Assembly: GCA_963692775.1 (NCBI GenBank)
Contig: OY839116.1
Location: forward strand, 1,542,544 to 1,606,543
Reading direction: 5' to 3'
Length of the DNA stretch: 64,000 nt
From: Dehalococcoidia bacterium
Lineage (GTDB): Bacteria > Chloroflexota > Dehalococcoidia > UBA2979
Shown here: in pieces, positions 32,660-45,906 of the stretch
How positions within the stretch are numbered: position 1 is the first letter of the stretch
Layout: each line of letters opens with the position of its first letter
Notes under the pieces: model-generated
The model's database searches: none
Told to the model about the DNA's origin: nothing
The model's input: the letters and a program-made list of their open reading frames with translations, nothing else
Made by a program: the position numbers and the translations under genes

Positions 32660-34120
32660 ATGACACCTTCATCTTCACGGGGGCGCCGAGACGCCTCCAC
32701 CCGGACTGCCGACGAGCCGAGCGCCGCCCGCGCCGCGGACGGCCGCGACGCGCGCGAGGGTCGTGATGGCCGTGACGGACGCGACGGACGCGAGGGCCGC
32801 AACGGCGGACGCTGGCGGCGCCGCGAGCGCGCTCCGCGCCCCGACGGCCCGCCTCCGCCCAGCCTCGACATCGCGGAGCTCGAGGCGCGCACGCAGGACC
32901 AGCTGATCGAGCTCGCCACCGAGCAGGGCGTCGAGAACCCGCACACCTACAACAAGCAGGATCTGCTGTTCCGCATCCTGCGTCACCAGGCCGAGCGCCA
33001 GGGCACGATCTACGCCGGCGGCGTGCTCGCGATCGTCGATGACGGCTTCGGCTTCCTGCGCGGCGAGCGGCTGGTGCCGGGCCCCAACGACGTCTACGTC
33101 TCGCAGTCCCAGATCCGCCGCTTCGGCCTGCGCGGCGGCGACTACGTGACCGGCCAGGTGCGCCAGCCCAAGGACTCGGAGAAGTACTACGGCCTGCTCC
33201 GCGTCGAGGCGGTGAACGGCGTCGATCCCGAGGTTGCGCGGCGACGCCCCAACTTCGAGGAGCTGACCCCGATCTTCCCGGACGAGATGCTGGAGCTGGA
33301 GACCACGAGCAGCGAACTGAGCCAGCGCATCGTCGATCTGTTCTCGCCGGTCGGGCGGGGGCAGCGCGGCCTGATCGTCTCGCCGCCGAAGGCGGGCAAG
33401 ACGATGCTGCTCAAGTCGATCGCGCACGGCATCGCGATCAACAACCCCGAGGTCCACCTCATGGTGCTGCTCGTCGGCGAGCGGCCGGAGGAGGTCACGG
33501 ACATGCGCCGCTCCGTGCGCGGCGAGGTGATCGCCTCGACCTTCGACGAGCCCGTCGAGGACCACACGCGCGTCGCCGAGGTGGCGATCGAGCGGGCGCG
33601 GCGGCTGGTCGAGGGCGGCACGGACGTGGTGATCCTGATGGATTCGATCACGCGGCTGGCGCGCGCCTACAACCTGGCGATTCCGGCCAGCGGGCGCACC
33701 CTCTCGGGCGGCATCGATCCGATCGCGCTGTACCCGCCCAAGCGATTCTTCGGCTCGGCGCGCAACATCGAGGGCGGCGGCTCCCTGACGATCATCGCCA
33801 CCTGCCTCGTCGAGACGGGCTCGCGCATGGACGACGTGATCTTCGAGGAGTTCAAGGGCACGGGAAACATGGAGATCCGGCTCGAGCGGCGGCTCGCGGA
33901 GAAGCGCGTCTACCCGGCGATCGACATCTTCGCCTCCTCGACGCGCCGCGAGGATCTGCTGTTCTCCGAGGAGCAGCTGCGGCAGGTCTGGCTGCTGCGC
34001 CGCATGGCCGCGATGATCAGCGACAACGGCGCCGATGCGACCGAGGACGTGCTGGAGCGCGTCGCCAAGACCGAGACGAACGAGGAGTTCCTCGGCAACC
34101 TCAAGTCCGGGGTCCTCTAG
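32660..34120 (+). CDS. rho: transcription termination factor Rho with RD-rich N-terminal insertion
   Basis: Walker A PPKAGKT, RNA-binding Q/R loops, C-terminus [17 protein letters not shown]; N-terminal [20 protein letters not shown] low-complexity insert. Confidence 0.9.
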
Positions 34121-34418: not shown

Positions 34419-35549
34419 GTGCTGGCGGTCGTCGTGTTCGCCGGGCTGTTCCCGGCTACCGAGCGCTCCACGCCGCCGGCCCCGCTGCTGAGGGCTTCGC
34501 AGATCTCGCTGCCGGGCCTCGCCGGGGCTTCCACCTGGACGCGGCCCGCGGCCACCCCGGTGGCGGCTCCCGAGCCGATCGAGCTGCCGACGGTCAATCC
34601 CCTCGATCAGGGCCAGCGGGCGATCAGTCCGCAGCAACAGCGGGAGCAGGCCGCGGCAGCGACGACCGAGGGCCAGGCGCCCCTTTCCGAGACCGACATC
34701 GCAGCGGCCGCCCGGCAGGCGGCCGTGGCGCCGCCCGCTTCGGCCGTGACCCGTGAGCGCGAGCCGCAGTCGCGCCCGCTGTTCTACCGCTACGAGGTAC
34801 GGGCGGGCGACACCGTCAGCGGCATCGCCGAACGCTTCGGCATCGCCGCCAACTACATCCTGTGGAACAACATCGACATCATCGACGACGCCGACGTCCT
34901 GAGCGTGGGCGAGGAGCTGCAGGTGCCGAGCGTGGCGGGGATCCTCCACGGCGTTCGCTACGGCGAGACGCTGCTGGAGATCGCCGAGCGCTACGACGCC
35001 AGGCTCGTCGAGATCATCGAGGTGAACGGGCTGGAGAGCGACGGCAGCATCTACGCCGGCGATACCATCCTCGTGCCCGGAGGGCGCATCGTCGCGCCGC
35101 CGCGGCCGACCATCCGCCCGACCGCCACGGCGGCGCCCGCGAGCGTCGCGACGCCGCAGTCGGCGGCGGCGGCGGCGTCCGCCTTCAACTTCATCTGGCC
35201 CACCAGGGACATCATCACCTCGTACTTCGGACCCAGCCATCCGCTCGGGATCGATATCAGGGCGCCGGTGGGCACGCCGATCAAGGCGGCGGCGGACGGC
35301 ACGGTGATCTTCGTGGGAGGCCCCAGGTGCTGCTCCTACGGGCTCCACGTGGAGGTCAAGCACGACGGCGGGTTCACGACCCTCTACGCGCACCTGCGCG
35401 ACTTCGCCGTCGAGACCGGCGACGAGGTCAAGGCAGGCACGGTCCTCGGCTTCGCCGGCCTGACCGGGCGCACCACGGGCCCGCACCTGCACTTCGAGAT
35501 CGAACTCAACGGGGTGCGCCGCAACCCGATGATCTACCTGTCCGACTGA
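34419..35549 (+). CDS. LysM-domain M23 family peptidase
   Basis: Two LysM repeats (YEVRAGDTVSGIAERFG, HGVRYGETLLEIAERYD) and M23 catalytic core (HLRDFAVETGDEVKAGTVLGFAGLTGRTTGPHLHFEI); start ambiguous: GTG 34419 lies inside the TM helix, a strong GGAGGAGG RBS sits at 34254 followed only by an in-frame ATC. Confidence 0.75.
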   Translation: MLAVVVFAGLFPATERSTPPAPLLRASQISLPGLAGASTWTRPAATPVAAPEPIELPTVNPLDQGQRAISPQQQREQAAAATTEGQAPLSETDIAAAARQAAVAPPASAVTREREPQSRPLFYRYEVRAGDTVSGIAERFGIAANYILWNNIDIIDDADVLSVGEELQVPSVAGILHGVRYGETLLEIAERYDARLVEIIEVNGLESDGSIYAGDTILVPGGRIVAPPRPTIRPTATAAPASVATPQSAAAAASAFNFIWPTRDIITSYFGPSHPLGIDIRAPVGTPIKAAADGTVIFVGGPRCCSYGLHVEVKHDGGFTTLYAHLRDFAVETGDEVKAGTVLGFAGLTGRTTGPHLHFEIELNGVRRNPMIYLSD

Positions 35550-35562
35550 GGGCGCGAACGCG

Positions 35563-36270
35563 CTAGCGGCGCGAAGCCTCCAGCAACACGACGCGCTGCT
35601 CCTCGCCGAGCTGGCGGGGGCGGATGCTCAGCCTCGGCAGCGGCTCGCCGCCGCTGAGGCCGGTGGCGTCGAGGAAGGCGCGCAGCACGGCGGGCTGCTC
35701 GCCCGCGTCCGCCGGACCGTCGTAGCTGACGGGGATCACGATCGTCGGCTCCAGGTCGCGCACTGTGCGCGCCGCGCGCTCGGGCGCGACCGCCTCGTCG
35801 CCGCCGATCGGCACGATCAGGATGTCGATGTTGCTGAACAGGCCGTGCTCGTCCTCGCGCGGCGGCGTGCAGCCGCTGCCGAGGTGCGCGAGGTGCATCC
35901 CCTCCGCCTCGACGACGTAGGCGATGTTGCGCTCGAACGCGGCGCCCTCCCCGTCGCGGGCGAGCGGGCTGGGCAGGCCGAAGAGCTGGACGCCCTCGAT
36001 CTCGTATTCGCCGGGGCCGTCGATGATGATCGGCTGGCCCCGCACCCCGCCGGCGTGGCCGTGGTGGGGGTGGTGGCGGCTGAGCGTCACGATGTCGGCG
36101 GTGGGGCGGCCCATGTCGAAGCCGGCCTCGCGACCCGCCGGGTCCATGACGACGGCCGCCTGCCGCGTGCGCAGCCGCACGCAGGCGTGTCCGAGCCAGT
36201 TGATGTCCATGTGGCGGCGCAGCCCTTCCGTGCCGCCGCGATCGTAGCGAGCGAGCGCCACAGTCGCCAT
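35563..36270 (-). CDS. MBL-fold metallo-hydrolase
   Basis: HxHxDH motif SRHHPHHGHAGG, beta-lactamase-like fold; alternative start at 36210 (MDINWLGHA). Confidence 0.7.
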   Translation of the reverse strand: MATVALARYDRGGTEGLRRHMDINWLGHACVRLRTRQAAVVMDPAGREAGFDMGRPTADIVTLSRHHPHHGHAGGVRGQPIIIDGPGEYEIEGVQLFGLPSPLARDGEGAAFERNIAYVVEAEGMHLAHLGSGCTPPREDEHGLFSNIDILIVPIGGDEAVAPERAARTVRDLEPTIVIPVSYDGPADAGEQPAVLRAFLDATGLSGGEPLPRLSIRPRQLGEEQRVVLLEASRR

Positions 36271-36314: not shown

Positions 36315-36887
36315 CTACTCCGCTTCGGCGGCGAGGGCCGCGGCGAGCTGGCGCAGCGTGCGGTGGTGCAGCGCCTTCACGGCGCCCTCGCTGCGGCCGA
36401 GGATGCGGCCGATCTCGGCGTTGGTCAGGCCGTCGACGTACTTGAGCGTGATCAGGCGCTGGCGGTCGGGCGCGAGCGCCGCCGCAGCGTCGCGCACGCG
36501 CTGCGTCTCCTCCCGCGCCTCGAGCGTGGACTCCGGTCCCGGCGCGTCGGAGGGCACGGCGAGCGCCTCGTCGAGCGGCGCGGATTGCGGCCTGCGTCCG
36601 CGATCGCGGTACCAGTTGGCCAGCAGGTTGTGGGCGATGGACATCAGCCAGGACTCGAACTTGCCGCGCCCGCGGTAGCTGCCGAGGCTGGCGAAGGCGT
36701 TGGTGAAGGTGCGCGAGGTCAGTTCCTCGGCGTCGCTCACGCTGCTGGTGCGGGACAGCAGGTAGCGGTAGACGCGGCCGGCGTGCGCCTCGTACAGCTC
36801 GGAGAAGGCGTCGCGCGCTTCGTCCGCGCGGGCGGGATCGCCGGCCTGCGCCGGGGCGGCGGTGTGGCGGTCCGAATCGCGGTCCAT
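36315..36887 (-). CDS. ECF-type RNA polymerase sigma factor
   Basis: Region 2 (FSELYEAHAGRVYRYLLSR) and region 4 HTH (YVDGLTNAEIGRILGRSEGAVKALHHRTLRQL). Confidence 0.75.
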   Translation of the reverse strand: MDRDSDRHTAAPAQAGDPARADEARDAFSELYEAHAGRVYRYLLSRTSSVSDAEELTSRTFTNAFASLGSYRGRGKFESWLMSIAHNLLANWYRDRGRRPQSAPLDEALAVPSDAPGPESTLEAREETQRVRDAAAALAPDRQRLITLKYVDGLTNAEIGRILGRSEGAVKALHHRTLRQLAAALAAEAE

Positions 36888-36946: not shown

Positions 36947-36976
36947 TTGACCGGGTGGGTGTCCGGCGGCTAGAAT
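36947..36976 (+). promoter_or_regulatory. sigma-70-like promoter TTGACC-n18-TAGAAT of the hrcA operon
   Basis: Direct sequence match immediately upstream of CIRCE. Confidence 0.55.
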
Positions 36977-36984
36977 CCAGTTTG

Positions 36985-37011
36985 TTAGCACTCTCCCCAT
37001 GAGAGTGCTAA
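36985..37011 (+). promoter_or_regulatory. CIRCE operator TTAGCACTC-n9-GAGTGCTAA (HrcA binding site)
   Basis: Perfect match to the CIRCE consensus; sits between the promoter and hrcA. Confidence 0.9.
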
Positions 37012-37040
37012 TCCGCGGGGTAGACCGGGATGGAGGGCCC

Positions 37041-38054
37041 GTGCTCACTCAGCGCCGGGCGGACATCCTCAATCTCGTCGTAGACGAGTATATCGGCACG
37101 GCTGCGCCGGTGAGTTCGCGCGCGCTGGTCGACCGCCACAACCTCGACGTCTCCACCGCCACCGTGCGCAACGAGCTGGCCGCGCTCGAGCAGGAGGGGT
37201 ACATCACGCACCCCTACACCTCGGCCGGCCGCGTCCCCTCCAACACGGGCTACCGCTTCTACGTCGAGCAGCTGATGGCCGAGGATCCGGTCGGCGCGGA
37301 CGAGCGGCGGACGATCGAGCACCAGTTCTACCAGGCGCCGCCGGGGCTGGATGAGTGGCTCGAGCTCGCCGCCTCGGTCCTCGCGGCGGCGGTCGGCAAC
37401 GTCGCCGTCGTCTCGCGTCCGCAGCGGCCGGTGCCGCACCTGCGGCAGGCGCAGCTGGTGCACCTGCGGCCCGGCGCCGCGCTGCTGGTGGCGGTGCTGG
37501 ACGACGGCAGCGTGCAGGAGCGGATCGTCGCGGCGCCGGAGAGCGAGGACCAGGCGGAGCTGCTCACCCGCGCCGCGCGCCTCAACGATCGGCTCTCGCT
37601 CTCCGACGCGGAGCGGATCCGCACCGTGGCGCCGCAGTTCGAGGACGACGACGACCGCCGGCTCGCGCTCGAGATCGCCGACCTGGTGGCGGAGGGGGCG
37701 AATGCGGCGCAACTCTTCATCGAAGGCATCCGCAAGGCGCTGGAGCAGCCGGAGTTCTCCACCACCGATCGCATGCTGGACGCAGTCGAACACCTCGAGG
37801 CCTACGAGCTCCGCGGCGCGCTGCGGCCGCCGCGGAGCCCGGACCCCGGCGCGCGCGTGCTGATCGGCGACGAGAACGAGCGGGGCTGGCTGCACGACTG
37901 GACGATGGTCATCTCGGCGTTCGGAGAGCCCGGCGGGGCCGTCGGCTCGGTCGCGGTGCTGGGCCCGACGCGGATGCATTACGGGCACACGATCCCGCGC
38001 GTCCGCTACTTCGCCCGGCTGATGACCGAGCTGCTGCACGAGCTCGATGGCTGA
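37041..38054 (+). CDS. hrcA: heat-inducible transcription repressor HrcA
   Basis: N-terminus LTQRRADILNLVVDEYIGTAAPVSSRAL winged helix plus HrcA C-terminal domain; the track ATG at 36999 is inside CIRCE, so start moved to in-frame GTG 37041 after GGAGG. Confidence 0.85.
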   Translation: MLTQRRADILNLVVDEYIGTAAPVSSRALVDRHNLDVSTATVRNELAALEQEGYITHPYTSAGRVPSNTGYRFYVEQLMAEDPVGADERRTIEHQFYQAPPGLDEWLELAASVLAAAVGNVAVVSRPQRPVPHLRQAQLVHLRPGAALLVAVLDDGSVQERIVAAPESEDQAELLTRAARLNDRLSLSDAERIRTVAPQFEDDDDRRLALEIADLVAEGANAAQLFIEGIRKALEQPEFSTTDRMLDAVEHLEAYELRGALRPPRSPDPGARVLIGDENERGWLHDWTMVISAFGEPGGAVGSVAVLGPTRMHYGHTIPRVRYFARLMTELLHELDG

Positions 38055-38655
38055 GGCGTCGCCCGCCGGCCGCACACACAACCCGATGACGAACCACCAG
38101 GAGCAAGACGACGTGCCTCTTGAAGGAGACAGCGCCGGGGAACCAACCGCCCCCGCCGGAGAGCCCGGCGGCGCGGACGAGGCCCCCGGCGACGCCGAGC
38201 GCATCGCCGCCCTCGAGGCGGAGGTGGCGGAGTTGACGGAGCGGCACGCCCGCGCGGTCGCCGATCTGCAGAACTACCGCCGCCGCGCCGAGGAGCGCTG
38301 GACGGAGCGGGCGCGGGCGCAGCTGGCGACGACGATGGCGCGCTGCCTGCCGCCGCTCGACGATCTGAACCGCGCCCTCGACTCGGTCGACGGAAACCTC
38401 GCGGGCGACCAGTGGGTCGAGGGGATCCGGCTGGTGCAGCGCAAGTTCCAGGAGATGCTGGCGGGCGCCGGCGTCGAGGAGATCGGCGGCGAGGGCGAGG
38501 CCTTCGATCCGCTGGTGCACGAGGCCGTCTCGTCCGCGCCGGGTCCGGACGGGCAGATCCTCGCGCTGGTGCGCGAGGGCTACCGCATCGAGAACTACGT
38601 GCTGCGACCGGCCCAGGTGGTGGTCGGGGGCGGCGAGGAGACGGAAGAACAGTAG
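38047..38655 (+). CDS. grpE: nucleotide exchange factor GrpE
   Basis: Coiled-coil DLQNYRRRAEE and GrpE C-terminal beta domain; 8-bp overlap with hrcA. Confidence 0.9.
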   Translation: MAEASPAGRTHNPMTNHQEQDDVPLEGDSAGEPTAPAGEPGGADEAPGDAERIAALEAEVAELTERHARAVADLQNYRRRAEERWTERARAQLATTMARCLPPLDDLNRALDSVDGNLAGDQWVEGIRLVQRKFQEMLAGAGVEEIGGEGEAFDPLVHEAVSSAPGPDGQILALVREGYRIENYVLRPAQVVVGGGEETEEQ

Positions 38656-38728: not shown

Positions 38729-40633
38729 ATGGCAAGAGTAGTCGGCATCGACCTCGGCACGACGAACAGCGCGATGGCGGTGATGGAGGGCGGCGAGCCC
38801 GTGATCATCGCCAACGCCGAGGGCGGCCGCACGACGCCCTCGATGGTCGCGGTCAGCGGCTCGGGCGAACGGCTCGTCGGGACCGTGGCGAAGCGCCAGG
38901 CGGTGACGAACCCGGACGGCACGATCTTCTCGGTCAAGCGGCTGATGGGCCGCCGCTTCGAGGACGCCGAGGTCACGCAGCTGCGGGAAGTCGCGCCCTT
39001 CGGCCTCAACGCGGCGAGCAATGGCGACGCACACGTGACGATGGGCGATCGCGACTACTCGCCGCCCGAGATCTCGGCGATGATCCTGCAGAAGCTGAAG
39101 GCGGACGCCGAGGCCTACCTCGGCGAGGAGGTCACCGAGGCGGTGATCACCGTGCCCGCCTACTTCAACGACTCGCAGCGCCAGGCCACGCGCGACGCCG
39201 GCCGCATCGCCGGCCTCGAGGTGTTGCGCATCATCAACGAGCCCACCGCCGCCTCGCTCGCCTACGGCCTCGACAAGAAGGGCGACGAGGTGATCGCGGT
39301 CTACGACCTCGGCGGCGGCACGTTCGACATCTCGATCCTCGAGATCGGCGACGGCACCTTCCAGGTGCAGGCCACGAACGGCGACACCTTCCTCGGCGGC
39401 GACGACTTCGACAACGCGGTGATCGACTTCCTGGTGGCGGAGTTCAAGCGCGACCAGGGCATCGACCTGGCCAGCGACCGGATGGCGCTGCAGCGCCTCA
39501 AGGAGGCCGCCGAGCGGGCCAAGATCGAGCTTTCGACCGCGCAGCAGAGCGAGGTCAACCTGCCGTTCATCACCGCGGACCAGAGCGGCCCGCGGCACAT
39601 GCAGATCACGATCACGCGCGCTCGCCTCGAGCAGCTCGTCGACGGCCTCGTCGAGCGCACGATCGGGCCGGTGCGGGACGCGCTCAAGGACGCGGGGATG
39701 CAGCCCTCGGACGTCGACGAGGTGGTGCTGGTCGGCGGGATGACGCGCATGCCGCTGGTGCAGGAGAAGGTGCGCGAGTTCTTCGGCAAGGATCCGCACC
39801 AGGGCGTCAACCCGGACGAGGTCGTCGCGATCGGCGCGGCGATCCAGGCGGGCGTGCTGCGCGGCGACGTCAAGGACGTGCTGCTGCTCGACGTGACGCC
39901 GCTGACGCTTGGCATCGAGACGCTGGGCGGGGTGCTGACCTCGCTGATCGAGCGCAACACGACGATCCCGACGAGCGCGCAGCAGACCTTCTCGACCGCG
40001 GCCGACAACCAGCCGTCCGTGGAGATCCACGTGCTGCAGGGCGAGCGGCCGATGGCGGCCGACAACAAGTCGCTGGCGCGCTTCATCCTCGACGGCATCC
40101 TGCCCGCCCCGCGCGGCGTCCCGCAGATCGAGGTCGAGTTCAACATCGACGCGAACGGGATCGTGACGGTCTCGGCGCGCGACAAGGCGACGGGCAAGGA
40201 GCAGCACGTCACGATCCAGGCGAGCTCCGGCCTCACCGACGACGAGGTCGAGCGCCTCACGCGCGAGGCCGAGGAGCACGCGGCCGAGGACGCGGCGCGG
40301 CGCGAGGCGGTGGAGCTGCGCAACGCGGCCGACAACCTCGCCTACTCGGCGGAGCGCACGCTCAGCGAGCACGCGGACAAGATCGACGACGAGATGAAGG
40401 GCCGCGTCGAGGCGGCCATCGCCGAGGTGCGCTCCGCCCTCGCCGACACGGACGCCGACGCCGCGGCGTTGCAGCCGAAGGTGGAGGCGCTCTCGCAGGC
40501 GATGCAGGAGATCGGCGAGGCGGTCTACACCGCCACGGCTGCCGAGGCCGAGGCTGGCGGCGACGGAGCGGCCGGCGAGGCGGACGACGAGGAGGCGGCG
40601 AGCACCGTCGAGGGCGAGTTCCGCGAGGTCTAG
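38729..40633 (+). CDS. dnaK: molecular chaperone DnaK (Hsp70)
   Basis: [31 protein letters not shown] Hsp70 signatures. Confidence 0.95.
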
Positions 40634-40650: not shown

Positions 40651-40775
40651 GCGCGAAAGTGTGCGGCACATTTCTGGATGGGTGCAGCGCGCACTTTCAC
40701 CGTGGCGGGTGGAAGTGCGCGGTTTATTTTTTGGGGGCTGTAGCGTACACTTTCTGGGTGAAAGTGTACGGTTCG
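40651..40775 (+). repeat. three dyad-symmetric elements sharing the core GAAAGTGT / ACACTTTC in the AT-rich dnaK-fic spacer
   Basis: R1 40655-40674 GAAAGTGTGC-GGCACATTTC; R2 40688-40721 CGCGCACTTTC-n12-GGAAGTGCGCG; R3 40744-40770 CGTACACTTTC-tgggt-GAAAGTGTACG (perfect 11-bp arms); a T-run tttatttttt between R2 and R3. Confidence 0.7.
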
Positions 40776-40779
40776 ATTT

Positions 40780-41817
40780 ATGAGGCGTGAACCTGATCAA
40801 CTTGGGGAGGGCCGGGCGGTGCGGCGCGGCCGGCCGCCTCGCGCTGCCGTCTACGCCCGGCTCGATACGCAGATCAACGAACTGTGGACGCGCATGGGGG
40901 GACTCCCCAACCGCCTGGAGGCGTCCGACATCTGGCGCGGCATCTGGTTCGAGGAGGCGCACCACTCCACCGCGATCGAGGGCAATACGCTCGTCCTGAA
41001 GCAGGTCGAGGCCTTGCTCGCGGAAGGGCGCGCCGTCGGCGACAAGCAGCTTGCGGAGTACATGGAGGTCCGCGGCTACGCGAACGCCGCCGACTGGGTC
41101 TACGGCCAGGCGATCGAGCCTGGCGATTGGTCCGGGGGCGAGTGGCTATCGCTGACCGAGGTCAGGCGCATCCATGAGGTTGCGATGGAGCCGGTCTGGG
41201 ATGTCGCGCCCCATCCGGTCGCCGAGTCGGCAGAGAGTCCGGGGGCGTACCGGCGACACGACATCCAGCCGTTCCCGGAGGGCATGACGCCTCCCGCGTG
41301 GACCGATGTGTCGGCGTTGATGGCTGACTGGATCGCCGACGTGAACCGCCTCGAGCCCGACGCCGAGCAGTTTCCGGAGGCCGTCGCCGCGCTGCACTGC
41401 CGGTTCGAGCAGATTCATCCCTTCCTCGATGGCAACGGCAGGACGGGTCGCCTGGTCCTCAACCTGCTGCTCGTCCGGCTCGGCTATCCGCCGGCGATTA
41501 TCTACAAGAACCAGCGCGGCACGTATCTGGCCGCGCTGCGGAAGGCCGACCGGGGAGACATCGGTCCGCTCGGCGAACTGCTCGCGCGGGCGATTCTCGA
41601 CAACCTCTACAAGTTCGTCATCCCGGCGGTGGCGGGCCCCGGCCGGCTTGTGCCGCTCGCTGCGCTGGCAAGTGAGCGGATCTCGCACTCGGCGCTGCGG
41701 ACGGCCGCGATCCGCGGGCGACTGCAGGCGACGCGCGGCGCCGACGGGCAGTGGCGCAGCACCATCAACTGGGTCGAGGACTACCTCGCGACTCGCTATG
41801 TGCGGGGCGCGCTGTAA
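40780..41817 (+). CDS. fic: Fic family protein, class II (FICD/HYPE-like) AMP-transferase
   Basis: Fic motif HPFLDGNGRTGR and upstream inhibitory-helix motif STAIEGN ((S/T)xxxE(G/N)); alternative start GTG 40819 after a GGGGAGGG RBS. Confidence 0.85.
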   Translation: MRREPDQLGEGRAVRRGRPPRAAVYARLDTQINELWTRMGGLPNRLEASDIWRGIWFEEAHHSTAIEGNTLVLKQVEALLAEGRAVGDKQLAEYMEVRGYANAADWVYGQAIEPGDWSGGEWLSLTEVRRIHEVAMEPVWDVAPHPVAESAESPGAYRRHDIQPFPEGMTPPAWTDVSALMADWIADVNRLEPDAEQFPEAVAALHCRFEQIHPFLDGNGRTGRLVLNLLLVRLGYPPAIIYKNQRGTYLAALRKADRGDIGPLGELLARAILDNLYKFVIPAVAGPGRLVPLAALASERISHSALRTAAIRGRLQATRGADGQWRSTINWVEDYLATRYVRGAL

Positions 41818-41870
41818 TCATGGCCGCCGGGCACGCGCATGCGGCGACTCTTCGGTAGACTGAGAGGTTG

Positions 41871-42989
41871 ATGGCTGCGGAAATCGACCTCTACGCGACC
41901 CTCGGGGTCCAGCGCGACGCCTCGCAGGAGGAGATCAAGCGCGCCTTCCGCAAGGCTGCGATGGAGTCCCACCCCGATCGCAACAAGAGCGAGGGCGCCG
42001 AGGATCGCTTCAAGCAGGTCAACGCCGCCTACGAGGTGCTCTCCGATCCGGAGAAGCGGCAGACCTACGACCGCTTCGGCATGGCCGGGCTCAACGGCGG
42101 CGGGCAGCACGGCTTCGCCGGCTTCGAGGGCTTCGGCGGCTTCGGCGATATCTTCGACGCCTTCTTCCGCGGCACCGGCGCGCGCCGGCCGGGTCCGCAG
42201 CGGGGGGCCGACCGCCGCGCCTCGATCTCCGTCTCGTTCGCGGATGCGGTCTTCGGGGTGGAGCGCGAGATCCAGTTCGATCGCGTGGGACGCTGCGAGG
42301 ACTGCCGCGGCAGCGGCTCGGCCAACGGCAGCCGTCCCTCCAGCTGTCCGGAGTGCGGCGGCCAGGGCGAGATCCGCCGCGTCCAGGAGTCGCTGTTCGG
42401 GCGCTTCGTGAACTCGGCGCTGTGCAACCGCTGCGGCGGTGACGGCGAGGTGGTGACCGACCCCTGCAAGGGCTGCGGCGGGCGCGGCCTGCGCATGGAC
42501 ACCGTCACGCGCTCCGTCAACATCCCCGCCGGCGTCGACGCGGAGCACCAGATCCGCCTCAGCGGGGAGGGCGACGCCGGGGTGCGCGGCGGCCCCTCCG
42601 GCCACCTCTACCTGGACCTCGACATCGCGGGTCACGAGCGCTTCGAGCGGCGCGGCGATCACCTGGTCTACGAGCTGCCGCTGAACCCGGCGCAGGCCGC
42701 ACTCGGCGCGGAGATCGAAGCGCCGACCCTCGAGGGCGATCCGGTCACCATCGACGTGCCCGCCGGCACGCAGCCCGGGCAGATCTTCAGCGTGCGGGGG
42801 CGCGGCGTGCCGCACCTGCGGGGTAGCGGGCGCGGCGATCTGCTGGTGCGCACGCACGTGGTCACGCCCACGAAGCTCACGGCCGAGCAGCGCGAGCTCA
42901 TGGAGCAGCTCGCCGACTCGCTCGGCACGCCGGCGCTGCCCGAGGACGATCGAGGACTGTTCGGCCGCATCCGGGAGGCCTTCTCCTAG
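41871..42989 (+). CDS. dnaJ: molecular chaperone DnaJ
   Basis: J-domain HPD (ESHPDRN), G/F region, four CxxCxGxG zinc-finger repeats. Confidence 0.9.
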
Positions 42990-42993
42990 CCCC

Positions 42994-43938
42994 ATGGCGG
43001 CGGGCGCGAACGCACGCGCCGCGCCGGGCGGCCCCGGCGCCTGGGTCGAGCTGACGGTCCGGCTGGCGCTCGCGGACGCGGAGCTGGTCGCCGACGCCCT
43101 CGCGACGCTGGCCGAGGGCGCGGTCGCGCTGGAGCCGCGCATCCGGACCTCGGGCGAGGTCGATTTCGCGTACACGGTCGAGGACGGCGGCGCGACGGTG
43201 CGGGCGTTCCTGCCAGCGCCGCTGCCGCCTCGCGAGCGCCGCGCGCTGCGGCGCCGGCTGGCCGCCCTGCCGCTGCGCGGCCCGCTGCCCCGGCTGCGTT
43301 ACCGTGCGGTCGAGAACCTCGACTGGTCCGAACTCTGGCGCGAGCACTTCACGACACTGCGGATCGGGCGGCTCGTGGTTCACCCGTCATGGGAGCCCGC
43401 GGAGGAGGGCGAGGCGCTGGCGATCAGCCTCGATCCGGGGCAGGCGTTCGGGACCGGCCAGCATCCGACAACCCGGCTCTGCCTCGCGGCGATCGAGCGT
43501 GCGTGCGCGCCCGGCGATGCGGTGCTCGACCTCGGTACCGGCTCCGGCATCCTCGCGCTCGCCGCCGCGCGGCTGGGCGTCGCGCGCGTCGACGCGCTCG
43601 ACACCGACCGCGACGCCGTGGAGGCGGCTCGCGAGAACGTGCGGCGCAACGGCCTCGAAGGCGTCGTGCGGGTCAGGAGGGGCTCCCTGCATCCCGACCA
43701 TGGCGCGCTGGAGACCTACGACCTGGTGGCGGCGAACATCTCGGCGGGCGTGGTCCGTGAGCTGCTGCCGGCGATGGCGCGGGCGCTGCATCCGGGCGGC
43801 CGGGTCGTCGTCAGCGGCTTCATGGAGGATCGCGCGCGGGAGGTGGTCGCGGCCGCGCGCGCGGCCGGTCTGATCGACGGCGTCGTCGAGCGGGACGAGG
43901 AGTGGTGCGCGGTCGTCGCGAGGAAGCCGCGTCCGTGA
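42994..43938 (+). CDS. prmA: ribosomal protein L11 methyltransferase
   Basis: FGTGQHPTTRLCL and SAM motif VLDLGTGSGILALAA. Confidence 0.85.
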   Translation: MAAGANARAAPGGPGAWVELTVRLALADAELVADALATLAEGAVALEPRIRTSGEVDFAYTVEDGGATVRAFLPAPLPPRERRALRRRLAALPLRGPLPRLRYRAVENLDWSELWREHFTTLRIGRLVVHPSWEPAEEGEALAISLDPGQAFGTGQHPTTRLCLAAIERACAPGDAVLDLGTGSGILALAAARLGVARVDALDTDRDAVEAARENVRRNGLEGVVRVRRGSLHPDHGALETYDLVAANISAGVVRELLPAMARALHPGGRVVVSGFMEDRAREVVAAARAAGLIDGVVERDEEWCAVVARKPRP

Positions 43939-44660
43939 GGCGCCTCTACGCGCCGGACGCGGGACTCGGACCCGGCGCCGGGTTGCGACTCGACGCGGCG
44001 CGGTCGCACCGGCTGCGCAACGTGCTGCGGCTGCGTCCGGGCGACGGCCTCGCCGTCTTCGACGGCGGCGGCGGCGAGTGGGCCGCGACCGTCGCCGAGG
44101 TCGCGGCCGAGGGCGTCGTGCTGCGAGTCGGCGAGCCGCTCGAGGCGCTTCCGGAGCCGCCGGTCGCGGTGACGTTGGTCTGCGCCTTCCCGCGCGGGCA
44201 GCGCGGCGACTGGATCGTGGAGAAGGCGACGGAGCTGGGCGTGGCAGCGATCACGCCGCTGGCGAGCGATCGCGCGGTGCTGCAGCCCGGCGAGGGTCGC
44301 ATCGAGCGCTGGCGGCGCATCGCGATCGAGGCGGCCGAGCAGTGCGGACGCGCCTCGCTGCCGGCGTTCGGCGAGGAGCCGCCGGACGGCGCGCTGCGGC
44401 TGCTTGCCGATCCGGGTGCGCCGCGGACGGTGGCCGAGGCGCTCGCGGACGCCTCGCCCGCGCCCGCCGCGGTCGCGATCTACGTCGGGCCGGAGGGCGG
44501 CTGGACGCCCGGGGAGCGCGAGCGGCTGATTGGCGAGGGCGCGCGGCCGGTGAGCCTTGGACCTCGCAGGCTGCGCGTGGAGACGGCGGCGCTCGTCACT
44601 CTTGCGCAGACTCTGTCGGCGCTGGAGGCCCGAAGCTCCCGCTCGTCAGAAACGATTTGA
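43935..44660 (+). CDS. rsmE: 16S rRNA (uracil1498-N3)-methyltransferase
   Basis: RsmE/SPOUT family pattern ([36 protein letters not shown]); GTG start overlaps the prmA stop (GTGA). Confidence 0.8.
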
Positions 44661-45906
44661 AAGTCCAGTCGAGCGGTTCGACGTTCACGCCGTGAATGCT
44701 GATCTCCCAGTGCAGGTGCGGGCCGGTGGAGACGCCGGTCGAGCCGAGCGTTCCGATCTGGTCGCCCGCCGCGACGACGTCCTCGTCGGCGACAGCGATG
44801 CCTGAGAGGTGGTGGTAGCCGCTCATGACGCCGGCGCCGTGGTCGATGATCACGGAGTTGCCGCGGAGCGGCATCTCGCCCGTCCAGCTCACGCGGCCGG
44901 GGGCGGCGGCCAGCACCGGGTCGCCCTCGTTCCCTCCGTAGTCCACGCCGCTGTGGAAGCTCTCGACCGTACCGCCGTCATAGGAACGCCGAACGCCGAA
45001 CTGCGACGTGACCGTTGAGCCGGGCGGGCGGAAAGGCCCGGACCAGGCCGGGGCGGGATCCGATTGCGCGAACTGCTCGGCGCGCCGTTCGGCCTCGCGC
45101 AGCTTCGACTCCTCGGTTCGCAGCGCGGCCGTCTCCGGCGTCAGGATGATGTGCTCGATGTCGCGCTCGATCTCAAAGATCTCACACGCGCCGGTGGCGT
45201 CGCCGATCTCCGCGCCGTCGGCATCGTGGAAGGTGACGCGCAGCGGCTCCTCGCCCGGCTCGGCGTCCAGGGGGATGCCGAGCACGCCCCAGAACGAGTC
45301 CCCCCGCGCCACGAGGGGATAGGCGCCCCCCCGGAACTCGATCCGCGCAGAGACGGCTCCAGCGGCGGAGGCCGTGACGACGAACGTCTGCCCGGAGCCG
45401 ATCCGTTCCGGGTCTACCGCGAGTTCGCCCGCGACGGGCGTGGGTTCGGGCGTCGGGGTAGGTGTCGGCGTGGGCGTGGGGGTTGGCGAGGGTGATGGTG
45501 TCGCGGTCGCGGTCGGAGTCGGGGTTGCCGTCGGTGTGGGCGTAGCCGTTGGGGTGGGTGACGGGGTGACGGTCGGCGTCGCGGTCGGCGTCGGCGAAGG
45601 TGTTGCGGTCGGCGTTGGTGTCGGTGACGGCGTGGCTGTCGAGGTGGGCGTGGGCGCCGGACGAGGAGTCGGAGTTGGTGGGGGCGTCGGGGTTGGAGTC
45701 GGCGTCGGCGTTGGGGCCGGGGTGGCGGTGCGCGTGATCGGGACGGCCCACACGGGCGGCGGCTGCGCGGGCGTGTCGCCGGCGCCTCGGAGCAGCGCCG
45801 CGGCGGCGGCGACGACCAGCAGCAGCACGACGATGGCCGCCAGCACGGCGGCGCTGCCGGGGCGCCGCGAGGAGCGCGGCGGCGGCGGGGTCTGATCTGC
45901 GGCCAC
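44596..45906 (-). CDS. membrane-anchored M23 family peptidase with Pro/Thr-rich linker
   Basis: N-terminal TM, about 110 aa (PT)n linker, M23 core (HSGVDYGG...GYHHLSGI...GPHLHWEI); 3-prime end overlaps rsmE convergently by 65 bp. Confidence 0.75.
45420..45720 (-). repeat. coding (PT)n / ACCCC-GGCGT tandem low-complexity repeat
   Basis: Reiterated ggtgtcggcgtggg-like units seen directly; encodes the PT linker of the M23 peptidase. Confidence 0.7.

Follow-up and report, generated by a model that had tools for sequence, protein, structure and literature searches.

A class II Fic gene with a putative operator array of its own between dnaK and dnaJ in one lineage of Dehalococcoidia

The window analysed here (the whole stretch of DNA under study, 64,000 nucleotides of contig OY839116.1 from a Dehalococcoidia bacterium) carries a heat-shock operon in which a gene for a Fic protein, fic, lies between dnaK and dnaJ. 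An initial annotation, made from the sequence alone, had described the operon around fic as canonical, and Pfam agrees: HrcA, GrpE and Hsp70 are assigned before fic, DnaJ, PrmA and an RsmE-type methyltransferase after it, and the operator known as the controlling inverted repeat of chaperone expression (CIRCE) is perfect. The listed open reading frame (ORF) of fic (40780-41817, forward strand) has the 345-aa translation announced and matches the Pfam Fic family PF02661 (E=1.8e-19, 70.8 bits against a cut-off of 24, residues 122-231). The operon comprises the following features.

36947-36976, forward: sigma-70-like promoter of the heat-shock operon, TTGACC-18-TAGAAT, matching at 10 of 12 positions (1 site found, 0.3 expected) and directly preceding CIRCE
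36985-37011, forward: CIRCE, the HrcA site, TTAGCACTC-N9-GAGTGCTAA, perfect consensus with 0 mismatches (0 in 100 shuffles)
36999-38054, forward: hrcA (Pfam HrcA, 5.4e-35)
38047-38655, forward: grpE (Pfam GrpE, 3.9e-35)
38729-40633, forward: dnaK, encoding Hsp70 (Pfam HSP70, 2.4e-260)
40819-41817, forward: fic, class II Fic enzyme, probable true coding sequence of 332 aa (the listed ORF begins at ATG 40780)
41818-41867, forward: fic-dnaJ spacer, 50 nt, without a terminator-like site
41868-42989, forward: dnaJ (Pfam DnaJ, DnaJ_C and DnaJ_CXXCXGXG)
42994-43938, forward: prmA (Pfam PrmA, 5.2e-66)
43902-44660, forward: rsmE-type 16S rRNA methyltransferase gene (Pfam Methyltrans_RNA, 5e-40, and PUA_4)

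The Fic family is large: over 5,900 proteins in the database match, with an identity of 69% or higher throughout the best 120, and a survey of one genome per GTDB species gave at least 571 confirmed fic loci. The best 80 species loci, together with the loci of individual homologues, were searched with the window HrcA, GrpE, DnaK, DnaJ, PrmA and RsmE proteins, mostly over flanks of 6 kb per side. The order hrcA-grpE-dnaK-fic-dnaJ-prmA was recovered in 12 genomes, all of them Dehalococcoidia metagenome-assembled genomes (L004 to L011, L015, L019, and the metagenome contigs L002 and L084; L001 is the same contig as L011). Identity to the window in these genomes is 79-96% for DnaK, 66-92% for HrcA, 54-81% for PrmA and 77-94% for Fic, so the arrangement is no accident of a single strain. 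Among the loci searched, dnaK-fic-dnaJ is found only in this lineage (the window and the 12 genomes), whose Fic proteins are the closest to that of the window, which fits a single insertion followed by vertical descent. The coupling of fic with dnaK and dnaJ is real and stable, yet lineage-specific. No description of a Fic gene in a dnaK operon was found in the literature searched, in line with the suggestion of the initial annotation that this coupling had not been characterised.

Most of the family lives elsewhere. At 70 of the best 80 species loci, where Fic is 65-78% identical to that of the window, dnaK, dnaJ, grpE and hrcA are absent from the examined flanks; these loci belong to Solirubrobacterales, Acidimicrobiia, other Actinomycetota, Tepidiformaceae and other Chloroflexota. 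Clustering of the flanking ORFs of 83 loci gave about 53 context groups and no neighbour gene common to the family, and the idea of a conserved partner gene was rejected on this result. The larger context groups are the following.

12 loci: dnaK context
11 loci: Solirubrobacterales, fic beside a PHP-type gene and a biotin carboxylase gene
7 loci: Chloroflexota, fic between thuA and ilvD

Across phyla, Fic identity is 65-74%, which is unusual for a Fic protein. Within the dnaK clade, the window and L002 share 86% of Fic residues, as against 79% for DnaK, 73% for DnaJ, 67% for HrcA and 55% for PrmA. A plasmid origin of the gene was discarded, PLSDB holding no relative above 37% identity. One actinobacterial contig (L086:7264-7834) has a small HTH_17 (excisionase-type) gene and a phage-integrase fragment downstream of its fic orthologue, and at no other locus were mobile-element remnants seen beside fic.

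A later insertion of fic had been proposed from a lower GC content of the gene and its 5' spacer. The insertion is supported by the comparative data above and not by base composition. The clear dip is that of the dnaK-fic spacer (GC 0.588), caused by the AT-rich boxes of the repeat array described below, and the gene itself differs only weakly from its neighbours (0.694 for fic, 0.705 for dnaK and 0.723 for dnaJ). Such an offset, of just 1-3 points or so from the flanks, led us to reject GC as evidence of insertion. GC at third codon positions is 0.877 in fic, 0.976 in dnaK, 0.936 in dnaJ and 0.889 in rsmE.

The 146-nt spacer between dnaK and the listed fic ORF contains three tandem repeat units, the last of which extends into that ORF. 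The features of this region are given below (the repeat units have no assigned strand).

40655-40698: repeat unit 1, GAAAGTGTGCG, 22 nt with a CACATTT box, then CGCGCACTTTC (11-nt arms, 91% complementary, 22 nt apart)
40688-40731, forward: tight, terminator-like palindrome (14-pair stem and T-run) formed jointly by unit 1 (right arm) and unit 2 (left arm), with GTTTATTTTT behind it
40711-40754: repeat unit 2, GGAAGTGCGCG, 22 nt, then CGTACACTTTC
40760-40803: repeat unit 3, promoter-proximal, GAAAGTGTACG, a GTTCGATT box and a degenerate right arm CCTGATCAACTT, with a -10-like element inside
40804-40811, forward: Shine-Dalgarno-like GGGGAGGG, 7 nt 5' of GTG 40819
40825-40842, forward: RGRPPR codons (R16-R21 of the 345-aa ORF, to which all residue numbers here refer), an AT-hook-like motif without variation at G17, R18, P19 and R21 among 22 sequences

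The array belongs to fic rather than to the heat-shock operon. It is found 5' of fic at nearly all of the 83 loci, in both phyla and regardless of the neighbouring genes, usually as two units, and it keeps fixed distances from the RGRP codons (about -58/-67 and -102/-110). The consensus unit reads as an arm AAAGTGTTCGG, a TNCAATT box, about 15 bases and an inverted arm CCGAACACTTT; arms of 10-11 bp lie about 22 bp apart around an AATT or -10-like box, and 2-4 such units stand in tandem upstream of the gene. The arms vary jointly by lineage (GTTCG/CGAAC, GTACG/CGTAC, GTGCG/CGCAC, GTATG/CATAC, GTCTACG/CGTAGAC, TTGAGCG/CGCTCAA), and the right arm of unit 3 is conserved in the dnaK clade while the bases around it vary. 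In Actinomycetota, the box is TACAAT and an ATG or GTG stands 6-7 nt further 3', which resembles the -10 element of a leaderless mRNA and would place a promoter between the arms. CIRCE was ruled out as the operator of the fic cassette, as it occurs as a single copy per related locus and exclusively 5' of hrcA. To our knowledge, the repeats match neither the HspR-associated inverted repeat (CTTGAGT-N7-ACTCAAG) nor the Cheo/LexA box (GAAC-N4-GTTC), the mycobacterial RecA-NDp/PafBC motif, the ClgR box or the -35/-10 spacing of promoters of extracytoplasmic function (ECF) sigma factors.

The motif also appears to be private to fic. It occurs nowhere else in the 64-kb window. A scan of metagenome collections for the array 17-mer gave 120 matches, most of them chance matches in low-GC DNA and uninformative as a whole; among the 13 matches in DNA of at least 62% GC, eight lie directly 5' of a fic gene of the family and one is cut by a contig end. 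A regulon reading was rejected on these grounds, the high-GC metagenome matches being almost all beside fic. Two other high-GC matches deserve mention: at L154 the motif precedes a distant Fic, and a high-GC metagenome contig (L203:1900-2030) holds a full two-unit cassette (…TTGTTCGGTGCAATT…CCGAACACTTTCTAAAGTGTTCGGTACAATT…) that is not followed by a Fic homologue. At L203, either fic was lost or replaced, or the cassette is able to control another gene.

In eight Chloroflexota loci, an extra repeat unit lies 27-88 nt 3' of the fic stop codon:

L010:7044-7095, L015:6999-7050, L019:7002-7053 and L084:7080-7131: downstream unit in the dnaK context, directly 5' of dnaJ
L031:5627-5678, L041:7023-7074, L043:7021-7071 and L055:7021-7071: downstream unit in the thuA-ilvD context

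As the downstream unit is also present in contexts other than dnaK, it is part of the fic module and not of dnaJ. In the window, the fic-dnaJ spacer is down to 50 nt and the downstream unit has been lost, while the spacer of more distant clade members is 145-165 nt long and holds one more unit. Such a unit could allow operators to be brought together by DNA looping, or the units could delimit a movable cassette.

The last possibility is half of an alternative account of the array, under which the units are not operators at all: they would be hairpins of a 5'-leader RNA (an attenuator, a thermometer or a processing site), or else recombination ends of a mobile fic cassette. The joint variation of the arms is of the kind seen in RNA stems, and two tight palindromes (40688-40721 and 40744-40770) score as terminator-like; for a mobile cassette speak the units on both sides of fic in the eight Chloroflexota loci, the roughly 50 contexts and the cassette without fic at L203. 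However, the dnaK-fic spacer has no Rfam match at E-values up to 1, and the arm mismatches comprise 11 A.C against five G.T, the reverse of what a sense-strand RNA stem with tolerated G.U pairs would favour; an RNA element was rejected as the main reading of the spacer for these two reasons. In addition, the last arm in Actinomycetota ends at most about 25 nt from the coding start or lies inside it, and the position of TACAAT before the start codon points to a promoter with an operator and not to a long leader. The T-run is restricted to the closest relatives of the window, and no transposase or integrase travels with fic. We thus consider this account of the array improbable.

The start of fic is probably GTG 40819, giving 332 aa, rather than ATG 40780: the Shine-Dalgarno-like element is suitably placed before the GTG, close homologues are annotated at 332-333 aa with N-termini MRRGRPP or MARPGRP, and in L002 and L010 the upstream ATG is absent and GAAGGAGG stands ahead of their ATG start. 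Over the probable GTG start and the RGRPPR codons, we observed an 18-nt GC-rich palindrome (40815-40848, 78% complementary), which may be a mere by-product of GC-rich Arg, Gly and Pro codons.

The protein itself has three parts of interest, namely an inhibitory helix, a catalytic loop and a small C-terminal domain.

40966-40986, forward: STAIEGN inhibitory-helix motif (residues 63-69, with E67), family-invariant and aligned to FICD TVAIEGN
41416-41451, forward: catalytic loop HPFLDGNGRTGR (residues 213-224), identified by Pfam, the FICD alignment and the family alignment
41635-41814, forward: predicted family-specific C-terminal domain of about 60 aa, probably a winged helix of MerR/Xis type

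An intact catalytic motif had been reported, and HPFLDGNGRTGR is indeed a loop of HxFx(D/E)GNGRxxR type, whose residues H213, F215, D217, G218, N219, G220, R221 and R224 are invariant among 22 aligned relatives. The inhibitory motif is present as well, though not about 100 residues upstream as first stated: E67 and the catalytic H213 are 146 residues apart. Class II enzymes in the classification of Engel et al. reportedly have (S/T)xxxE(G/N) in the same polypeptide as the Fic core and N-terminal to it. The assignment to this class holds, the segment S63-T-A-I-E67-G68 being on the same chain, invariant and aligned to FICD TVAIEGN without gaps; no separate antitoxin ORF was found in the 146-185-nt spacer before fic.

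The resemblance to FICD/HYPE that had been noted for both motifs extends to the whole core, and profile searches return significant Fic and FICD similarity. Human FICD is the best match among all PDB sequences (E=1.4e-23, residues 52-272), with Caenorhabditis elegans Fic-1 beside it at the top and the bacterial structures BT_2513 (2.6e-16), Dde_2494, CdFic and SoFic behind. It is also the best fold match (Foldseek E=7.8e-11, template-modelling score about 0.56, 26-28% identity). The alignment with FICD is gap-free from the inhibitory helix through the next helix, STAIEGN matching column for column: E67 corresponds to FICD E234, K256 and L258, which belong to the FICD dimer relay, have their counterparts in K89 (conserved to at least 90%) and L91 (family-invariant), and FICD E242 aligns to Q75. 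By analogy with FICD, SoFic and CbFic2, the enzyme probably combines AMPylase and deAMPylase activities under the control of its oligomeric state. The full-length AlphaFold2 model has a mean predicted local distance difference test (pLDDT) score of 71, mostly 76-95 in the Fic core and below 50 at the C-terminus; given this moderate quality, it was used for the Fic core only. Two helices stand ahead of the inhibitory helix in this model, and within the roughly 50 residues that precede that helix we found neither a tetratricopeptide repeat (TPR) domain of FICD type nor a membrane anchor, Pfam finding Fic only. Besides, generic Fic profiles of PADLOC match about as well as FICD does (PDC-S04, 3.9e-27; SoFic, 9.5e-26). 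FICD is thus the nearest solved structure and not a demonstrated orthologue.

These PADLOC matches raise the question of a toxin-like or anti-phage Fic protein of the SoFic/PDC-S04 kind, silenced by its inhibitory Glu and by self-repression and directed, once activated, at a target essential for growth such as EF-Tu, FtsZ or GyrB, for which the dnaK-dnaJ spacer would be just a tolerated landing site. The many genomic contexts and the HTH_17 and integrase remnants at L086 would suit such a gene, EF-Tu and FtsZ are known targets of Fic proteins with a winged helix-turn-helix (wHTH), and horizontal transfer is general among Fic genes (PMC4454073). However, the PADLOC matches do not reach beyond the generic Fic core, and for the NCBIfam SoFic equivalog the score is 33.9 bits, far short of its cut-off of 550. 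Conservation is unusual for a defence gene (65-74% between phyla and about the DnaK level within the clade), synteny is kept within clades, and the best plasmid relative is only 37% identical. A defence role consequently appears quite unlikely.

The C-terminal domain is the least familiar part of the protein. Its roughly 60 residues include 24 invariant positions among 24 sequences. No relatives outside the Fic family were found by Pfam (E-values up to 10), by a PDB profile search or by a profile search of 1.84 billion representative proteins, in which the matches were mostly truncated Fic C-termini. Modelled in isolation (pLDDT 74.5), it adopts a beta-alpha-alpha-beta-beta-alpha order, and its nearest Foldseek neighbours are MerR-family proteins, BldC-DNA complexes, mycobacteriophage Xis and RacA, at a best E-value of 0.83, which is not significant. 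The model is thus consistent with a winged helix of MerR/Xis type without being proof of one. Scores for HspR, CbpM and DafA, MerR-fold proteins linked to Hsp70 operons, were below significance, with no sequence similarity to the C-terminal domain, and we retain them as a lead only and not as a sign that this domain contacts DnaJ or DnaK. At the other end of the protein, the RGRP motif could act as an AT-hook core contacting the AATT boxes. Two apparent correlations between recognition-helix residues and arm sequences (TVNALRT with GTATGG arms, and His at the second helix position with GT(A/G)CGG arms) are suggestive and confounded with phylogeny; neither was used as evidence.

Our preferred interpretation, to which we give a probability of about 0.6, is that fic is a self-contained and probably autoregulated module which landed between dnaK and dnaJ in one lineage of Dehalococcoidia, where it has been passed on ever since. 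The module would bring its own control region, namely the tandem units upstream and, in some Chloroflexota, the one downstream. As no regulator gene travels with fic, the Fic protein is the simplest candidate for binding the repeats: a Fic dimer would grip the arms through the MerR/Xis-like winged helix, perhaps assisted at the AATT box by the N-terminal RGRP motif, and would repress its own promoter, by analogy with CccR (where repression is experimental) and SoFic (where it is suggested). Directly after dnaK, the terminator-like palindrome at 40688-40721 and the GTTTATTTTT that follows it, whose T-run is peculiar to the window and its closest relatives, may end the dnaK transcript (40688-40731), and there is no terminator-like site between fic and dnaJ. 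From this hairpin and from the 50-nt terminator-free spacer, dnaJ-prmA-rsmE would probably be transcribed at least partly from the fic promoter. On the same sequence features, dnaJ is probably co-transcribed with fic; a fic-dnaJ-prmA-rsmE unit driven at least in part from the fic cassette, plus read-through from dnaK, is plausible, and would tie dnaJ expression to the putative self-repression of Fic whatever Fic modifies.

Several observations weigh against this interpretation. The repeats could be bound by another regulator, one that both phyla have kept and that is encoded away from fic, and the covariation of the arms is confounded with phylogeny. The dnaK-dnaJ placement has been kept across genomes in which PrmA identity falls to 54-57%. 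Under random placement, some 50 contexts and about one chance in 3000 intergenic sites for each give a FICD-like enzyme a probability of roughly 2% of landing exactly inside an Hsp70 operon. Finally, within the clade Fic is as conserved as DnaK (86% against 79% between the window and L002), which fits a core partner such as DnaK.

The last three of these points lend themselves to the view taken in the initial annotation, in which the position of the gene implied that DnaK or DnaJ is its target. Under this view, Fic would play the part of FICD in bacteria and AMPylate one of the two chaperones reversibly, and its place in the Hsp70 operon would reflect its function. FICD, a modifier of an Hsp70, is the nearest characterised relative; the inhibitory helix and the equivalents of K256 and L258 are conserved; the gene order is held in 13 genomes over DnaK identities of 79-96%; the conservation of Fic, equal to that of DnaK in the clade, suggests a core and slowly evolving partner; the chance of hitting this spacer, given about 3,000 intergenic sites per genome, is small; and the extra repeat unit stands directly 5' of dnaJ in L010, L015, L019 and L084. 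The window DnaK also has, in the segment DKATGKEQ, a Thr at what we take to be the position of BiP T518. This residue is not discriminating, since a Thr or Ser is widely conserved there.

However, the weight of the positional argument is reduced by the 70 of 80 best orthologous loci that lie away from any Hsp70-system gene, by the roughly 53 contexts and by the array that fic carries in cis. The flap and the active site are invariant in the 70 unlinked loci too, so the position is not a family trait, and the downstream repeat unit is likewise found in L031, L041, L043 and L055, outside the dnaK context. In FICD, TPR1 docks onto BiP (complexes 7B7Z and 6ZMD), while the Fic protein of the window lacks an Hsp70-docking TPR domain and has only about 50 residues ahead of the inhibitory helix. 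PADLOC Fic profiles match as well as FICD, the known substrates of wHTH-Fic proteins are EF-Tu, FtsZ and histone H3, and AMPylation of BiP is described as specific to metazoans (PMC10939069). The case was, moreover, picked out because of this very positional coincidence. With control DNA of its own and other locations in most relatives, the position of fic alone does not show that it acts on Hsp70, and we regard DnaK or DnaJ as an unlikely substrate, albeit one worth keeping in view. A fuller version of the idea is slightly more doubtful still: a dimer-switched AMPylase/deAMPylase tethered to its own operator would tune DnaK (at the T518 equivalent) or DnaJ, its MerR-like domain would double as a J-protein or Hsp70 contact in the manner of CbpM and DafA, and the operator would also set dnaJ transcription in Dehalococcoidia.

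Returning to the autoregulated module, the invariance of the flap and of the catalytic residues across lineages implies that the substrate should be the same housekeeping protein everywhere. DnaK or DnaJ and a DNA-associated protein (gyrase, topoisomerase or a nucleoid protein) appear equally, and not very, probable in this role, and EF-Tu or another translation factor marginally less so; the best single guess, although it falls a little short of an even chance, is some protein outside these sets.

How far does this family resemble characterised Fic enzymes? FICD and C. elegans Fic-1 share with it the (S/T)xAIEGN motif and the HPFxDGNGRTxR loop at 26-28% identity. However, FICD has a membrane anchor and TPR, whereas the Fic protein of the window is bacterial and cytoplasmic and ends in a C-terminal domain of about 60 aa, with RGRP at its other end. 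The closest parallel in control is CccR of Yersinia pseudotuberculosis, a class II Fic protein with a helix-turn-helix (HTH) at its C-terminus, which as a dimer represses the promoter of its own gene by way of two inverted repeats of 10 bp placed 26 bp apart over the -35 and -10 boxes (PMC9755527). The 10-11-bp arms of the window, about 22 bp apart around a -10-like box, are built alike, binding being in our case a prediction from sequence. CccR differs in being a toxin secreted by the type VI secretion system that AMPylates FtsZ, and in its large HTH region (residues 201-380); the family studied here has 2-4 tandem units, sometimes with one downstream, and a Fic core nearer to FICD.

SoFic of Shewanella oneidensis, whose dimer binds the promoter of its own gene, AMPylates EF-Tu (bioRxiv 10.64898/2026.07.09.737422), and in CbFic2 of Coxiella burnetii DNA binding switches the enzyme between AMPylation and de-AMPylation (PMC10628234). 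Both enzymes belong to class II and are bifunctional (de)AMPylases, with an activity governed by dimerisation, by DNA binding or by both. Their sequence similarity to the Fic protein of the window is, however, weak (PDB E-value about 2e-7, in the catalytic loop only), their wHTH domain (IPR048770 type) measures about 150 aa as opposed to about 60 aa, and their substrates are EF-Tu and histone H3. The fic gene of the window is thus an uncharacterised class II variant with a predicted domain of DNA-binding type and putative inverted-repeat operators, as in CccR and SoFic, from which it differs by its FICD-like core, its much smaller C-terminal domain, units that can flank both sides of the gene and a stable dnaK-dnaJ position in one lineage.

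Some further observations concern the surroundings of the operon. The listed hrcA ORF has its ATG inside the CIRCE palindrome (36985-37011), and hrcA homologues are annotated as 337-338 aa, so the true start is probably a GTG about 40 nt further 3'. Divergent from hrcA is a gene for an ECF-type sigma factor (Sigma70_r2/r4_2; 36315-36887, reverse strand), followed by a gene of metallo-beta-lactamase fold (35563-36270, reverse); this pair stands beside hrcA in all loci of the clade. Two M23 peptidase genes bracket the operon. The upstream one (34419-35549, forward) has LysM domains, and the downstream one (44596-45906, reverse) encodes a Thr/Pro repeat (TPTPTPTP) of about 120 residues, which produces a strong GC-skew spike at 45400-45800. 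Further upstream, the Rho termination factor (32660-34120, forward) has an Arg/Gly/Asp-rich N-terminal extension of about 70 residues ahead of its Rho_N domain.

The locus provides a clear example of a gene position in a famous operon that is lineage-specific and needs comparative data before it is read functionally. Behind it stands a large uncharacterised Fic family (at least 571 loci among GTDB species representatives), conserved about as well as DnaK and marked by a FICD-like core, a private putative operator array and a small domain of DNA-binding type, which makes it a tractable model for the coupling of DNA binding, oligomeric state and catalysis in class II Fic enzymes. The DnaK idea is directly testable, and the size, extreme conservation and experimental tractability of the family leave it of moderate interest. 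Were the DnaK model true, AMPylation of Hsp70 would be an ancient bacterial mechanism that predates animals, and a soluble 332-aa enzyme would be at hand for its study.

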